From assembly GCA_965216875.1 (NCBI GenBank), contig OZ244207.1, positions 5,824,001 to 5,888,000 of the forward strand: a DNA stretch of 64,000 nt. Reading direction: 5' to 3'. Below, piece by piece: positions 5,439-54,168 of this stretch. The notes under the pieces are model-generated. The model saw only the letters and a program-made list of their open reading frames with translations. It was not told the DNA's origin and made no database searches. A program made the translations under genes and the position numbers. Positions within the stretch are counted from its first letter, which is position 1; the number at the start of each line of letters is the position of its first letter. This stretch comes from Rubripirellula sp. Lineage in GTDB: Bacteria > Planctomycetota > Planctomycetia > Pirellulales > Pirellulaceae.

Positions 5439-5481
5439 TTTTTACCTCCGATGCAGTCGCCCTCACGACGCAAACCGAAAC

Positions 5482-5670
<189 letters not shown>

Positions 5671-19155: not shown

Positions 19156-19889
19156 TTTTTGCCCACCATTTTTCTGTCACCTTTCTTCAGCCCCAGGCGA
19201 TTCTCACGAGCTGAACCTTTTCGTGCCTTCTCGTGTTTTTCGTGGCCAACCAACGATCCAGAAACCTCGGAAACCGACAGCTCAGCGGGAGCCTCGCCCT
19301 CCCAATAATGACCGAAGAACAAAGCCACAGAGAACGCAGAGTTCACAGAGAGTGTTTGCAACGAACGCTCAAGATATCGCCCATCTTTTTGCCCCCATTT
19401 TTCTGCCAACTCTCTTACCTGCCCCGGGCAATTTTCACGAGTTGAAGCTTTTCGTGCCTTCTCGTGTTTTTCGTGGCCAACCAACGATCCAGAAACCTCG
19501 GAAACCGACAGCTCAGCGGGAGCCTCGCCCTCCCAATAATGTCCGAAGAACAAAGCCACAGAGAACGCAGAGTTCACGGAGAGTGTTTGCAACGAACTCT
19601 CAAGACACCGCCCATCTTTTTGCCCCCATTTTTCTGCCAACTCTCTTACCTGCCCCGGGCAATTTTCACGAGTTGAAGCTTTTCGTGCCTTCTCGTGTTT
19701 TTCTTGGCCAATCAACGATTCAGAAACCACGGAAACCGACAGCTCAGCGGGAGCCTCGCCCTCCCATCGATCGCGTCAACAGCAGAAGAACAAAGCCACA
19801 GAGAACGCAGAGTTCACAGAGAGTGTTTGCAACGAACGCTCAAGATATCGCCCATCTTTTTGCCCACCATTTTTCTGTCAACTCTTTCC
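19156..19889. repeat. Tandem array of about 3 copies of a 231-bp composite repeat
   Basis: Period 231 bp (spurious ORFs start at 19233, 19464, 19695); modules TTTCGTGCCTTCTCGTGTTTTTCGTGGCC, CAGCTCAGCGGGAGCCTCGCCCTCCC, GCCACAGAGAACGCAGAGTTCACAGAG, TTTTTGCCCCCATTTTTCTGCC. Confidence 0.92.
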
Positions 19890-47407: not shown

Positions 47408-47547
47408 GGGGACAGAGCACCTTCGTCACCTTAGCGGGGTCGGCGCACTCACGCCCGGGGACAGAGCACCAGTTTTCGTTTGTTTTCCAATCTCACCCGA
47501 TTTTCCGGGGGACAGAGCACCTCAACCCTACCTCGGGGACAGAGCAT
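47408..47547 (+). repeat. Left array of the 13-bp motif GGGGACAGAGCAC (5 copies)
   Basis: Copies at 47408, 47436 (3 mismatches), 47457, 47508, 47535 (1 mismatch). Confidence 0.9.
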
Positions 47548-47695
47548 GATTGTTTGATTTGATGTTATTGACGGTCGATACGGGTCGTTGTCCAATAACT
47601 TTTCCCGTCGAGATCGAAGAGCGATCCCATCGACGCCAGCGAACTGGCTCATCAAGACGAGCTCCAGTCGCATTCTTCTTTTTTGGGGCTCTTCG

Positions 47696-48748
47696 ATGAG
47701 TAGGTGTTCTCGCCGTGATGTGTTTGATCCCGCCGAGGTCAATGTAGCTCACATCATCAATCGCACAGTGCGAAGGTGCTACCTTTTTGGCCACGACCAA
47801 CTAACCGGTACAAACTTCGACCACCGAAAGGAATGGATTGAAGAATTACTTGAGCATTTCGCGGCCAACTTCGGCATCGACCTGCTCTGCTTCGCGATCC
47901 TTTCGAACCACTATCATCTCATCCTGAGGACGCGGCCGGATGTTGTGGCCACGTGGGACGACACCGAAGTGGCTCGCCGCTGGCTAATGATCTGCCCTCA
48001 TCGCAAAGTCGATGGCAGACCAGCAGAACCGAGCGAATCAGAGTTGAACATGATTCGCCATTGCCCGGACAAACTTGCTGAGATTCGTAAACGGTTGTCT
48101 GATCTCTCGTGGTGGGTACGGCTGCTGAATCAACGCGTAGCCCAGCGAGCCAACCGCGAGGAAGCGGAACATGGCCGATTTTGGCAAGACCGATTCAAAG
48201 CCATACGTATTGTTGACGAAGAATCGTTGCTCGCATGTGCTGCCTACGTTGAACTGAATCCGATTCGGGCGGCGATTGCCGAAACGCTCGAGGACAGCGA
48301 CCACACTTCAATCCAACGTCGCATCAATGCCGAGTTTTCACAAGTGGCGGCGAAAGATGAAGACTCACGCAGACATTCGCAAGATTTCCTCGCTCCACTA
48401 ACCCTCGCAGAACAGGCTGGGGACGTCGGTCCAATGCCAAGCCATACGAAGCGCAGGTGCAGCGACAAAGGGTTTCTGGCAATCGACATTGAAAGCTACA
48501 TTGAACTGCTTGAGTGGACAGCTTGTAAATCAGTGCAACGCGAACGCGGTGCCACAACTGTCTTTATACCGTCGATCCTTGGGCGTTTTCGAATCGAGCC
48601 ACGCAGTTGGCTGGAGCTCGTTCTAGCCTTCAGCAAAACCTTCCCGATGGTCGCTGGCCGCTGCGATCGAGTCGACGGTCTACGGAGTAACGAAACCGGT
48701 CGCCGTTTTCGCGTGACCCCCAACGCAAGACGCCTGCTACCCGCCTAG
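47696..48748 (+). CDS. HUH Y1 transposase-like nuclease (RAYT/TnpA-REP, IS200-related)
   Basis: HIINRTVRR, FAILSNHYHLIL (HUH), GRFWQDRFK, AAYVELNPIRA (catalytic Tyr + NP), SDHTSIQRR; start ATG 47696. Confidence 0.88.
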   Translation: MSRCSRRDVFDPAEVNVAHIINRTVRRCYLFGHDQLTGTNFDHRKEWIEELLEHFAANFGIDLLCFAILSNHYHLILRTRPDVVATWDDTEVARRWLMICPHRKVDGRPAEPSESELNMIRHCPDKLAEIRKRLSDLSWWVRLLNQRVAQRANREEAEHGRFWQDRFKAIRIVDEESLLACAAYVELNPIRAAIAETLEDSDHTSIQRRINAEFSQVAAKDEDSRRHSQDFLAPLTLAEQAGDVGPMPSHTKRRCSDKGFLAIDIESYIELLEWTACKSVQRERGATTVFIPSILGRFRIEPRSWLELVLAFSKTFPMVAGRCDRVDGLRSNETGRRFRVTPNARRLLPA

Positions 48749-48882
48749 CTGCCTTCTCACAATAGCCGTGCCACATCTACCTGCTACCGGTAAGCGCAAC
48801 TTGCGGGAATAGATGCGCGTCTGCACTAGGCACTCGATATAAGTCGTGAAACGTACGGTGAGTTTGTCGATCCCACGCAACG

Positions 48883-49445
48883 GTGCTCTGGCGCCGTAAA
48901 GAGACCAGGCCAAAAACCCTCATCGGGAATCCAAGCTGCGTCGATTGCGGGAATCCGGGCCACCCGAAAGTGCACTGTCCCCAGACGAGAGGGGAGAGTT
49001 GGGTGCTCTGTCCCCGGTGGGAGGATGCTTTCGGCTCACCAGCGCGTGATGCCCGATGAAGAACTCGGGGCAAAGTGCTCTGTCCCTTGGACAGTACTTC
49101 TTGGACAGTACTTTGAGAGGATGCCTGCATCCTCCCAAAGAGACTCTGGTGCTCTGTCCCCGTCGAGCCCCGTCGAGCCGTCGCTGGTGCTCTGTCCCCG
49201 TCGAGCGCCGCTCCGTCGAGCGCAGGTAAAGTGCTATGTCCCCATTGGGAGAATGCGCCCATTGGATTTGCTCCCGCGATCCTGCCTATGCTCTGGCCCC
49301 CAACGATCCCAACGATCTCCAACGATCCTGGCCCCCAACGATCCAACGATCGGTGCTCTGTCCCCAGACGACTGTCCTGTCCCCAGACGACTGTCATCGG
49401 TGCTCTGGCCCCAGACGAGAAATGAGAGTTGGGTGCTCTGTCCCC
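48883..49445 (-). repeat. Right array of the same 13-bp motif in inverted orientation (GTGCTCTGTCCCC on +; 11 copies)
   Basis: Copies at 48883, 48970, 49003, 49075, 49149, 49187, 49231, 49288, 49353, 49400, 49433 (0-2 mismatches), spacers 20-74 bp. Confidence 0.92.
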
Positions 49446-49461
49446 GGTGGGAGGATGACTC

Positions 49462-49523: not shown

Positions 49524-52500
49524 TCAAAACAGGCTTCCTGTCTCGAGCAGCACCAACTCATCCTCGCTTTCTTCCAAGAAACCTCCGTCGCCAAACGCGG
49601 CGATTGCAGCATCGACGGCTTCGGCTTCACTCCTCGCTGCAAGACTCTCGCGTGCAAGATCGTTGATGACCAACAACGCATCGAGAGACGTGATGTCGCC
49701 GTCCCCACCAACATCAAGATCCAAACCGGTCGCCTGTGCCTCGTCAGCGATCGTCGCCTGACTGCCAAAGCGGTTTAGAAAGTTGATGACCAGCAGTGAA
49801 TCGAGCGCAGTGACTTGTCCGTCACGATTCACATCAGCCGAAAGCCGCGAATTCTGGAGACTAACACTGCGTGCCGAACAGGCTCCATCGACGCCGCTGC
49901 AAACATCTGCCTCAGGATCAAACAACAAGACAGTGATGGTCGCGATCGGCATCAACCCATTAAATGCTGATTCGAGCGTCCCGGTCGGAACCCCCGTCCC
50001 AATGAATTCGTCAAGTCCAGCGTGCCGATGAATGACGCCTCCTTCGTCGACCGAGTCGCCACCTTCGGTTGAATAGGCCGCGCCGCCCAGTGGGTCGTTT
50101 ACCTCGGTGCCAGCGTCGAGGATGTCGCGACCGTATATCGTGATCTGCCGTGCTCCCTGGAAGTTACCGAGTTCGTCGAACAACTCGTACTGCCGTGAAT
50201 TGCGATTGGCTACAAACGCATCATTCGACGGAATCACCATACTGACGAAACTGAAGAAACGATTGAGGCTCGAATCCTCCACCTCAATCACTTGTGTCGC
50301 GATCTCACCCGGTTCGATGACAGGAGCCCCCGCAAACCCTTGAGGTGCAGCGATGACGGAACTGGTACCGTCTGACTCTCCTGCAAAACGTGCAACGAGT
50401 TCGCTCGTGTCACCCTCTTCGGCAATCAACTCCAACCCACCAAATTCGGACGCCAATGCTCCTCCGCGAGCGACTTCGAACGCGCCATCGTGAAACCCTA
50501 CAAAGAAGGGCGTGAGTGCCAGTCCGCCCTCCGGCGTCAACGATTCGATCTCAACCTGCAGCCGCACGCCCACATCGACTTGAAACGCACCAACAACGTC
50601 AGACTCACTGGCTTGGCCAAGCGTATCACTCACTTCACCGGGGCGCAGATTGACGGTATACCGCCCATTGTCGCGTCCGGTGAATTGGCCGTCTTGAGTT
50701 GTCACCGTGTAGGTCGCGGTTACCGTCGTGGGTGTCGTTCCGATCGCCGCATCCGTCTCCACTGCAGTCACCGTCAACTGCCTAGCCAATGGCCCAACCA
50801 CTGCGATGTCTTCGATTCCGATCGATGTCGGGTCAATGCCAGATGGATCGCTATAGGTGACATGAACCTCGTGCGTTGTCGCCCCCGCAACCACGACATC
50901 GTCGGCCGCGACGCTGGCGGTCGGCCCATCGCTGTCGACCGGCAGCGACGTTCCATCTGTCAAACTGATTGTGATGCGTGCCAGTGGCGTATCGCTCACA
51001 AAAGCAGACTCGAGCGTTTCACCTGTCGGCAATCCGGATCCGATGAAGTCGTCCAGCCCTTGGTGCCGCGTGATCACACCGTTCTCATCCACGCCATCGC
51101 CGCCTTCAGTCGAGAAGGCAGCCCCGCCGTCCACCTGATTCAGTTCCGTTCCGGCATCCAAAACGTCGCGTCCGGTCAACGTGATCGTTTGCGTTCCCAA
51201 AAAGAAACCATCTTCATCAAACAATTCGTAGGCCCGCGCGTTTAGGTTGGCAAAGAACGCATCGTTAGATGGAATCAGCATGCTCGCGAAACTGAAGTAC
51301 CGATTCAAGTTGGTATCGAGAACCGAGAGCGTTTGTGATGCCACTTCACCAGGTTCAATGACCGGCGCGCCAGCGAATCCCTCGGGCGCGACAAGGACGG
51401 TATCGACACCACTTGATTCGGCTGCAAACCGAGCAACGACACCCGAGACATCCCCTTCTTCGGCGAGTGCCTCCAAACCACCAAACTCGGCGGCGACAGC
51501 GCCGGCTCGAGCAAGTTGGAAGTTGCCCTCATGCACGCCCACCCAGAACGGAGTTTGTGCCAAGCCCCCTTCGGCTGCGAGATTCTCGACAGTGATTGTC
51601 AGTTGCACGGGCACCAACACCTGTAATGATCCAAGCGCTTCCGCGGTAACTTCGTTTCCAAACACGTCACCCACTTCGCCATCAGCCAATGTGATCGTGT
51701 ATAGCCCGTTGTCAAAAGTCGAATACGGATCGCCGTCGGCGGTTGCGATTTGGTAGGTCGCGGTCACTGTTCTCGGATCGGCAGTGTCAGCGTCCGTGGT
51801 GACACCGACCACTTCGAGTGGTTCGTTGAACAAGCCAGTCACTTCAATGTCGCGGGTGTCGATGGTTGAAACGTCGACACCCGAGGCATCGCTGTAGGTC
51901 ACGCGCACCTCATGCGTGTTTGCACCGGGACTCATCAAGTCGGTGATGTCCGCGTTTGCGGTCGGTGCCTTATCGTCAATCGCATCGGCGGGCGCGTCCG
52001 CAAGACTGATCGTGATGCGTCCGATCGGCGTCATGTTGCCAAATGCCTGGCCAAGCGTCCCCGTTGGGACTCCGGTTCCGATGAATTCATCCAAGCCGTC
52101 ATGGCGTCTGATAACGCCACCCTCATCCACCGATGTTCCCCCTTCGGTACTGTAGGCAGCGCCGCCGCCAACCTGGTTCACTTCAGTGCCGGCATCCCAG
52201 ATATCTTGTCCATAGAGCGTGATCGTGCGAGCGCCCGTGAAGTTGCCCGACCGGTCAAACAGCTCAATACCACGGGGGTCCAGGTTCGCAATGAATGCGT
52301 CGTTGGATGGAATCACCATGCTCGCGAAACTAAAAAATCGGTTTCGCTGCGGATCGCTCACGTCAAACGCTTCAAGTACCGACTCACCTGGCTCGAACAC
52401 AGGGGCTCCAGCGAATCCGTCGGGGGCAAAGATGACGGTCGCATCGTTCCCCGTCTCGGACTCGAAACGTGCGACCAATTCACTCGGATCACCATCTTCG

Positions 52501-53813
52501 GCGATCAGTTCCAAGCCTCCAAAATCACTCGCAACGCCGCCTGCACGAGCGACTTCGAAGTTGCCATTGTGAACACCGACAAAGACCGGCGTCTGCGCAA
52601 GCCCACCGAGTTCCGACAAGTTTTCAAACGTAACGTTCAACCGCACCGGAGCGTCTACGGTGAACTCACCAAGTCGTTGTTCAGCAGCTGTATGCGCAAA
52701 AGTGTCACCCACCTGGTCACCTAGCAATACGACGCTGTAGATACCATTGTCCAAATGCGTAAACGATCCCGAGTCGGGCGCGACACGATACGTTGCAACA
52801 ACTTCGCGCGGCGTCGTCCCGGCCGCTGCGTCCGTGGTCACAGACAAGACATCCAGCTGAGTCAAGAAAGGACTCGTCACGCGCAGATTGCTTGGCGTGA
52901 TGCTCGTCAGATCGATTCCCGATGGATCGCTGTAGGTGACCGCAATCTCGTGGTAGTCAGCGCGTTGAGTCAGATCGCTCGCGTCGAATTGCACACGAGG
53001 AGCCGTCGCATCGATCGGGTCGCTCGGGTTTGAGGCTTGAGAAATCGTGATTCGTGCAATCGGCGTCTGGGACTGGAACGCGCGTCCAAGTGTCTCGCCT
53101 GTAGGTAACTCCGAACCGATGAAGTCGTCCAGGCCCGTGTGTTGAGCGATCACGCCATTTTCGTCTGCCGACGTGCCACCCGCTGTTGCGAACGCCGCTC
53201 CGCCGGCTGGATCATTCACCTCAGTCCCAGCATCCCATACCTGCGAGCCGTAGACGACAATCGTTTGAGGCCCGAGGAAATCGCCCGAACTGTTGAAGAT
53301 GCGATAGGCTTGCTGGTTCAAGTTACCAATGAACGCGTCGTTGGACGGAATCAGCATCGAGGCAAAGCTAAAGTACTGACTCTGCAGTGGATCATCGACG
53401 GTGAACTGTTCGGTGACGACTTCGCCAGCCTCGAACACGGGCGCTCCCGCGAAACCATCCGGCGCCAAAACCACCGCATCGTTGCCAACGCCATCGGCCG
53501 CAAATCGAGCGACAAGTTCACTCGGATCACCTTCTTCGGCAATGAGTTCAAGCCCACCGAAATCGGATGCCGCAGCACCGAGATCTCCCAAATCGAAGCT
53601 ACCGTCATGCGCCGCGATCCAAACGGGCGTGTTCCCCAAACCTGTTTCCTCGGACAGGTTCTCGATGCTGATCTGTAACACCTCCGCAGCCAACAAGCGT
53701 CGACGTTCAAGCGATTCGAGATTCAGCTTGCGTGAGTTTGTTTTGCGATTGGAAGATTGATTAGACAAGCCGGAACGACGCGCCGATTTAGCGCGGGCAA
53801 AAAGCGATCTCAT
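49524..53813 (-). CDS. Large surface protein with four spondin_N-like domains, three Ig-like spacer domains and a dockerin
   Basis: RKLNLESLERRRLLAA; four TP.(W/F)V..H.G.F..LE.(I/L)AE.GD..SF.SM.IPSNDAF..DAGTE.N units; three V.VTYSD.SG.D..ATY..DNG.Y units; ADVNRDGQVTALD/DVGGDGDITSLDAL; start moved to ATG 53813. Confidence 0.88.
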   Translation of the reverse strand: MRSLFARAKSARRSGLSNQSSNRKTNSRKLNLESLERRRLLAAEVLQISIENLSEETGLGNTPVWIAAHDGSFDLGDLGAAASDFGGLELIAEEGDPSELVARFAADGVGNDAVVLAPDGFAGAPVFEAGEVVTEQFTVDDPLQSQYFSFASMLIPSNDAFIGNLNQQAYRIFNSSGDFLGPQTIVVYGSQVWDAGTEVNDPAGGAAFATAGGTSADENGVIAQHTGLDDFIGSELPTGETLGRAFQSQTPIARITISQASNPSDPIDATAPRVQFDASDLTQRADYHEIAVTYSDPSGIDLTSITPSNLRVTSPFLTQLDVLSVTTDAAAGTTPREVVATYRVAPDSGSFTHLDNGIYSVVLLGDQVGDTFAHTAAEQRLGEFTVDAPVRLNVTFENLSELGGLAQTPVFVGVHNGNFEVARAGGVASDFGGLELIAEDGDPSELVARFESETGNDATVIFAPDGFAGAPVFEPGESVLEAFDVSDPQRNRFFSFASMVIPSNDAFIANLDPRGIELFDRSGNFTGARTITLYGQDIWDAGTEVNQVGGGAAYSTEGGTSVDEGGVIRRHDGLDEFIGTGVPTGTLGQAFGNMTPIGRITISLADAPADAIDDKAPTANADITDLMSPGANTHEVRVTYSDASGVDVSTIDTRDIEVTGLFNEPLEVVGVTTDADTADPRTVTATYQIATADGDPYSTFDNGLYTITLADGEVGDVFGNEVTAEALGSLQVLVPVQLTITVENLAAEGGLAQTPFWVGVHEGNFQLARAGAVAAEFGGLEALAEEGDVSGVVARFAAESSGVDTVLVAPEGFAGAPVIEPGEVASQTLSVLDTNLNRYFSFASMLIPSNDAFFANLNARAYELFDEDGFFLGTQTITLTGRDVLDAGTELNQVDGGAAFSTEGGDGVDENGVITRHQGLDDFIGSGLPTGETLESAFVSDTPLARITISLTDGTSLPVDSDGPTASVAADDVVVAGATTHEVHVTYSDPSGIDPTSIGIEDIAVVGPLARQLTVTAVETDAAIGTTPTTVTATYTVTTQDGQFTGRDNGRYTVNLRPGEVSDTLGQASESDVVGAFQVDVGVRLQVEIESLTPEGGLALTPFFVGFHDGAFEVARGGALASEFGGLELIAEEGDTSELVARFAGESDGTSSVIAAPQGFAGAPVIEPGEIATQVIEVEDSSLNRFFSFVSMVIPSNDAFVANRNSRQYELFDELGNFQGARQITIYGRDILDAGTEVNDPLGGAAYSTEGGDSVDEGGVIHRHAGLDEFIGTGVPTGTLESAFNGLMPIATITVLLFDPEADVCSGVDGACSARSVSLQNSRLSADVNRDGQVTALDSLLVINFLNRFGSQATIADEAQATGLDLDVGGDGDITSLDALLVINDLARESLAARSEAEAVDAAIAAFGDGGFLEESEDELVLLETGSLF

Positions 53814-54168
53814 TTCGAATCCGAGAGGCAGGCGACATGAAGGCTGAAAAGATAACTGCCACGAAATGAGCTTCGAATAAGCGCGCCCGCCACGATTTGG
53901 GATGAAACATTCGCACGAAAAACATGCGAATCGAGCGTTGCGCTCGCCGCCCAAAAACGCCCTCCTCGCTGCCAAACGTTAGCGAGCAAACATGAAGACG
54001 AGCCAACCGTTCGCTGCGATACACACGGCCGTTTTATCGTCGATGTTTCTCACGAACATGCGTGCGCTGGGTGGCTCAGATGGTCCTAGTAAAGATCCGC
54101 GCGCCGACACCTGCGTGATCGACTTTTTCTGAAGCCCGCAAAAAAAGTCGTCGAAGATTCGCCGCTGC

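Follow-up and report, generated by a model that had tools for sequence, protein, structure and literature searches.

Duplications phased to the end motifs of a TIRtron in Rubripirellula sp. suggest a transposase cut zone outside the motif

Genes for Y1 tyrosine transposases flanked by inverted GGGGWSAS repeats are an already known type of element, named TIRtron in 2013 (Di Nocera, De Gregorio, Rocco 2013, PMC3733652); the repeats are described there as terminal and also form a dispersed family of single, paired and clustered copies, and the accessible portion of that text contains neither junction duplications nor a cut site or mechanism. A literature search, outside whose range lay subscription journals, bioRxiv supplements and figures, returned no account of junction duplications or of the cut position and no experimental test of TIRtrons. 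In the available part of the classification of TnpA_Y1 proteins (Quentin et al. 2018, 10.1101/279083), TIRYT is linked to subclass 2.1 and no flanking signal is reported for subclass 2.3. A mechanistic parallel is offered by the E. coli TnpA_REP/BIME system (Ton-Hoang et al. 2012, PMC3333891), in which HUH chemistry yields a 5'-phosphotyrosine and a free 3'-OH; the legend of Fig. 7B in that paper sets out a model of nicking, priming of a host polymerase by the 3'-OH and rejoining to the 5'-phosphotyrosine, by which a unit is added. According to the sections of the same paper that could be consulted, TnpA_REP requires a GTAG-footed hairpin on single-stranded DNA, cuts between C and T and makes a second cut.

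The window analysed here is the whole stretch of 64,000 nt from Rubripirellula sp., and its locus 47408-49445 is a TIRtron. A gene for a 350-aa Y1 HUH tyrosine transposase (TIRYT; 47696..48748, + strand), assigned by profile matches and invariant residues, is flanked in inverted orientation by copies of a 13-nt motif which contain GGGGACAG and match GGGGWSAS. Four outward-facing copies make up the left end (47408..47547, - strand; 47408-20, 47457-69, 47508-20 and 47535-47) and 11 the right end (48883..49445, + strand), where they are spaced 33-87 nt from start to start. The C-run of all these 15 occurrences (the number in the window with no more than 2 mismatches, against an expectation of 1.2) points away from the gene; the motif is thus the outward-facing end repeat of the transposase gene, and the inverted part common to both ends is 13-14 nt long. 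In the whole 8.26-Mb genome 84 copies were found at no more than one mismatch, grouped in 25 clusters, a dispersed family of the kind described for TIRtrons. The first-pass annotation had spoken of spacers between the motif copies, a framing which is misleading given that the motif is a transposon end repeat; a CRISPR-like array is rejected, since the periods are not constant and the spacers are partly copies of their neighbours. Such arrays are evidently open to misreading as CRISPR-like systems. Directly beyond the array lies a gene for a 1483-aa secreted-type protein (49524-53975, - strand) with Spondin_N, dockerin and Planc_extracel matches.

The transposase matches Pfam Y1_Tnp with 25.4 bits, just above the cut-off of 23, and NCBIfam REP_Tyr_transpos with 46 bits, under the cut-off of 80. 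Its motifs are H72-Y-H74 and Y184-x3-N188-P189, and H72, H74, Y184, N188 and P189 are invariant in 10 of 10 aligned homologues, while a search of solved structures gave weak matches only (E 0.5), to entries named 'transposase' and in the HUH region. Four full-length homologues are present in the same genome. By length, motif spacing and distribution, the features from which the relationship is known, the protein resembles subclass 2.3 and would fit there: the available text on that subclass (10.1101/279083) likewise gives about 325-350 aa, Y---NP, a long HUH-Tyr spacing, multiple copies, no REP hairpins and homologues in Alteromonadales, and characterises the subclass further by core insertions, a long C-tail and homologues in Chromatiales. 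Unlike subclass 2.3 as presented in those pages, the elements studied here have inverted end motifs and duplication scars, in both phyla in which we found them. A REPtron or classical RAYT was rejected: a REP hairpin with a GTAG or GTGG foot was sought at 10 motif copies on either strand and none was consistent (z -2.2 to +1.2), and the REP_Tyr_transpos score is below its cut-off.

Six duplications are present in the right-end array at the positions given by the first-pass annotation, all on the + strand, and in each the first copy overlaps the motif end, as had been claimed. Offsets are counted from the last base of the motif. Duplication 1 (49086-49099 and 49100-49113) is a perfect tandem of 14 nt, from -2 to +12, with no microhomology. 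Duplication 2 (49158-49169 and 49168-49179; -4..+8) is nested in a 38-nt unit (49146..49183), which consists of this duplication and the next unit copied from -16 to +7 and is absent in strain X5. In duplications 3 (49198-49208 and 49213-49223; -2..+9) and 4 (49241-49248 and 49258-49265; -3..+5) the copies are separated by 4 nt and by 9 unexplained nt (49249-49257), respectively. Duplication 5 (49293..49351) is a nest of -8..+9, -2..+8, -1..+9 and -1..+8, with starts at -8, -2 and -1, a common outer edge at +8/+9 and one 9-nt copy missing in X5. Duplication 6 (49358-49376 and 49377-49395; -8..+11) is in turn nested in a 47-nt unit (49349..49408) that contains the next unit copied from -17 to +6, and the 47-nt stretch 49362-49408 is absent in X5. 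Since the 38-nt and 47-nt units are neighbour copies with nested duplications, whole units would arise in the same way as the short pieces. There is also a 58-nt block of two motifs, present in two copies 91% alike (48970-49027 and 49400-49457, + strand), whose common part ends 12 nt past the second motif.

The six duplications have a variable start inside the motif and an end clustered 5-12 nt beyond it. From the claim that they are anchored at the CCCC end, the phasing to the motif was borne out and the anchoring at CCCC was not, the duplications straddling it. Motif copies with a duplication number 6 of 11 in the array, whereas 500 shuffles of the spacers gave 0.094 on average and never more than 2. 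The stretch 48998-49453 is reproduced base for base, with 0 differences, in contigs of X1 and X4, two runs of a single sample that may be the source, and X5, a run from another study, retains most of the array. The first spacer contains a 14-bp inverted repeat (49111-49140); read in reverse complement, 49127-49137 within it is identical to 49018-49028, the tail belonging to an earlier motif copy, and may have been inserted in inverted orientation from that template. Elsewhere in the window a 231-nt unit is repeated 3.1 times (19156-19885) and adjacent 6-nt tandem repeats are found at 5480-5604, for which no link to the scars was seen.

Throughout the Rubripirellula genome a duplication spans the motif end at 19 of 76 distinct motif copies, compared with 21 of 2373 occurrences of the identical 7-nt core in other places and 38 of 4999 sites chosen at random (Fisher p 1.7e-19); shifted anchors within arrays gave 3-12 of 76 and are a poor control which also catches neighbouring units. 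The outer end lies at +8..+12 in 17 of these 19 events. For eight of the 19 the nearest full-length homologue is over 100 kb away, which makes it necessary to assume action in trans. Of 150 genomes sampled from the family, 52 have homologues, and the homologous set comprises 112 genes from 42 genome labels, 38 of them with sites. At these loci a duplication is carried by 183 of 486 outward-facing cores, the 183 being spread over 26 of the labels with sites (8 of the 183 rows are one locus entered twice and were dropped later, which leaves 175 events in 25 genomes), and by 8 of 65 inward-facing cores near the genes, by inspection mostly in inverted arrays. The flanks analysed were 30 loci of the family sample, 60 regions and 20 further homologue loci; the sample leans to active elements because the 60 regions were picked from multi-copy genomes, and sites within one genome, as well as related genomes, are not independent.

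Full-length homologues of 31-36% identity were also found in Alteromonadales, Vibrionales and Aeromonas. Seven gammaproteobacterial loci, from 13 matches in a plasmid collection, were analysed and six have duplications, with outer edges at +6..+13 and including copies of 178 and 205 nt. Phasing to the motif therefore holds in homologous arrays of two phyla, and the duplications are a real, family-wide and mechanistically informative signature.

To see which edge of the duplications is fixed, we examined 500 sites in 38 genomes, this one included, with no lower limit set on the outer edge. Perfect tandem duplications touching the core end were found at 137 sites. An outer edge at +6..+12 is possible for 116 of them and one at 0..+2 for 8; the interquartile range is +7 to +10.5 for the outer edge and -8 to -3 for the inner, which has a tail to -30 and peaks at -8, -6 and -3. 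Outer medians per genome fall between +5 and +10 in all 15 genomes with at least 3 events. The outer edge is a band of 6-7 nt with no single point, and 21 of the 137 are outside it. A constant duplication length, as from a staggered cut or target-site duplication, is not supported, since lengths vary from 9 to 21 nt and inner and outer edges show a correlation of 0.11. At 50 of 492 sites there are long versions, in which the sequence beyond the tail starts again within the element body, at depths of 46 to 1366 nt; of their 33 junctions at or below +15, 31 sit at +6..+15 (two of these match the array and not the body), while the 17 junctions beyond +20 are mostly behind a nested shorter copy or another motif. 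Among motif-starting copies whose second copy is more than 20 nt out, 426 of 480 stop by +11, in a search whose seed admitted no edge below +6.

The 38 unambiguous outer edges, which are a proxy for cuts only, show 15 different dinucleotides, and one position is pyrimidine-rich in 32 of 38 (p 0.004, uncorrected, with 7 positions tested). The tails beyond the motif are 62% C+T, often pyrimidine-rich and of low complexity. Bases lie between the copies in 84 of 183 events, some of them nested shorter copies and others, like those in duplication 4, unexplained; a predicted non-templated single-base bias was not seen in the 183 events, gaps of 1-2 nt being heterogeneous. Microhomology in 93 perfect tandems has a mean of 1.11 nt compared with 1.00 in a positional null, and 38 of them have none. 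At the right end of one locus (L030) a 15-nt junction unit (-6..+9) stands in about 19 perfect tandem copies, a minisatellite born at an element end.

The ends of mobile copies can be compared with these edges. Between near-identical copies, shared sequence continues past the motif for 5-11 nt at 72 of 127 ends and for 0-2 nt at 37 of 127; in genome G128, three 1359-nt copies with 98-99% identity have their ends 9 and 8 nt beyond the cores. The end repeats thus appear to be subterminal and the real element ends to lie outside the 'terminal' repeat, which differs from the terminal position given in the consulted part of the TIRtron description (PMC3733652). The informative edge is, on sequence comparison, 7-11 nt outside the motif and not at CCCC, and the nick site next to GGGG/CCCC proposed by the first-pass annotation is probably wrong.

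Two G128 regions (L124, L125) each have three copies within 10-13 kb in one orientation, and in three 19.9-kb regions with clustered G128 copies no duplication of flanking host DNA was found, the repeated sequence being the element and internal pieces only. Tails of 5-10 nt are hypervariable between near-identical copies in G128 (L063-L075), G036 (L096-L102) and G146 (L082-L086); they nevertheless retain a T-rich or related pattern. At the right end of four G019 loci (L057, L058, L059 and L062) two motifs stand tail-to-tail about 6 nt apart, an arrangement resembling a circle junction, and similar tail-to-tail motif pairs are present in the Rubripirellula genome near 6854492-6854539.

Dynamics on a shorter time scale can be followed in strain X5, which differs from the window by 18 substitutions in 2601 nt and in which 5 of 6 indel or joint differences are at motif copies. 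It is without the 38-nt unit, the 47-nt unit and the one 9-nt copy (gain and loss are not polarised by an outgroup), and its left end contains one more unit and one more junction duplication, of 8 nt (-1..+7). In a paralogous locus of X5, insertions of 16 nt and 26 nt stand exactly at +8, and a 14-nt and a 9-nt junction piece are absent; of 10 small indels at this locus, another three fall within a nested junction array and three lie apart from motif ends. Insertions found only in X5 are accordingly at +7, +8 and +8. This supports a local origin of the duplications. The suggestion that spacers are generated locally and not captured can be kept for their duplicated parts only; it does not extend to the unique parts (e.g. 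49028-49074), for which no match of at least 18 nt was found elsewhere in the genome, except in motif-containing or repeat-derived sequence.

We regard the duplications as likely scars of aborted copy-out, in which a nick in the G-rich strand would be followed by inward synthesis and rejoining, and give this reading a probability of about 0.55. The wider claim, that they are scars linked to the enzyme with a cut zone outside the motif, is very probably correct. The transposase would bind the motif and nick the GGGGACAG-bearing (G-rich) strand about 7-11 nt 5' of it, at no fixed dinucleotide. Its tyrosine would keep the protein attached to the 5' end of the element, while the free 3'-OH of the flank would prime strand-displacement synthesis by a host polymerase into the element. 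The synthesis would mostly halt within the motif, where bound protein blocking the polymerase may be the origin of the inner-edge pile-up, and would sometimes proceed tens to more than 1000 nt further in. Attack of the new 3'-OH on the phosphotyrosine would then leave the copied stretch in tandem, its outer edge set and its inner edge free; through further rounds nests, whole new motif units and arrays would build up, and a round reaching the other end would yield a full copy released for transposition. If a set outer and a free inner edge are to come from one nick, the only route would be a nick on the G-rich strand outside the motif. The model does not explain the replacement of tails right at the motif (the 37 of 127 ends), and it is also counted against it that, in the part of PMC3333891 available, related HUH enzymes cut only single-stranded DNA in vitro, at a fixed dinucleotide. 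The band-like outer edge, the bases between copies in 84 of 183 events and the dependence between sites also weigh against it. Unlike in TnpA_REP, there is here no consistent hairpin and apparently no fixed dinucleotide, the edge is defined by distance, the copies are partial and the proposed route involves no second cut.

A nick made in duplex DNA at a position given by distance, if that is what happens here, would differ from the cuts of IS200/IS605 and REP enzymes, which are guided by hairpins, fall in single strands and are defined by sequence. IS91 and Helitrons use Y2 HUH enzymes and have unlike ori and ter ends, and their products, which stem from an HUH nick at an end, have one fixed and one variable end. 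The proposed end nick and the one fixed and one variable product edge are similar to these; membership in either group is rejected, the family match here being Y1 and the two ends being alike and inverted, with the same motif and scars on both. It is tempting, and at present rather speculative, to see in the long Y1 proteins a distinct mode of HUH transposition: a short, hairpin-free subterminal motif would direct a nick placed as if by a ruler, roughly one helical turn beyond it and almost regardless of sequence, the two ends would serve as rolling-circle-type origins, and aborted rounds would write tandem duplications ranging from 8 nt to over 1 kb. In that case the enzyme would be a site-directed duplication writer, distributed from Planctomycetota to relatives in Vibrio, Shewanella and Pseudoalteromonas. 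The scars would locate the cut site of the TIRtron enzyme class, they would account for the growth of motif arrays, and they give a specific prediction of the strand cut, the cut position and the direction of synthesis.

The same edges could be attributed to two cuts made by the same enzyme with the same outer zone, short single-stranded pieces or circles being excised and re-inserted at the end as in IS608 or BIMEs (Model A/C in the consulted part of PMC3333891). The inner-edge peaks at -8, -6 and -3 could then be preferred second cuts, and the 15-nt unit repeated about 19 times at L030 is as expected from rolling-circle copying of a small circle. We nevertheless consider this explanation unlikely: inner edges form a continuum between +3 and positions over 1 kb inside, at which no shared sequence was seen, and the majority of copies are in place and in register. 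Circles as small as 9-20 nt are moreover poor substrates. Just as unlikely is a route in which the enzyme, at +7..+11, gives the C-rich strand a free 3' end or breaks both strands, and host repair lets the end jump back and re-copy the motif region, whether by template switching or by alternative end-joining. Many junctions do contain extra or nested short pieces (the 84 of 183), and these speak for it, as do the 11-nt inverted copy of a neighbouring tail at 49127-49137 and a slight excess of 2-3 nt microhomology; yet 38 of the 93 perfect tandems have zero microhomology, there is no reason why a jumped-back end should stop at the same outer edge, and neither Ku nor the LigD Prim-Pol was found in the 99%-complete genome, with which end-joining by Ku and LigD is rejected.

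The mechanism of the first-pass annotation, a nick immediately beside GGGG/CCCC with short synthesis and rejoining, is in accordance with the element ends that diverge 0-2 nt past the motif and with a few motif-only stutters (e.g. L013, L014). It is very improbable in view of the 8 of 137 tandems in which the outer edge could be at 0..+2, of inner edges which are not fixed at 0 either and of the motif-starting copies that mostly stop by +11. The same annotation had argued that random slippage would not be phased in this manner, and here it was right. Slippage or unequal recombination at the C-run independent of the enzyme, for which the pyrimidine-rich tails of low complexity could speak, is largely refuted, and so is an assembly artefact, and together they are the least probable of the explanations considered: the 7-nt core away from motifs is at the level of random DNA, microhomology is about at chance and the array is exactly reproduced in independent contigs.

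A second motif family, of the GTGCCTGTCCCC type, has 45 sites genome-wide, occurs near homologue L004 and is mixed into the same clusters. Its duplication profile is weaker and also drops at about +10.
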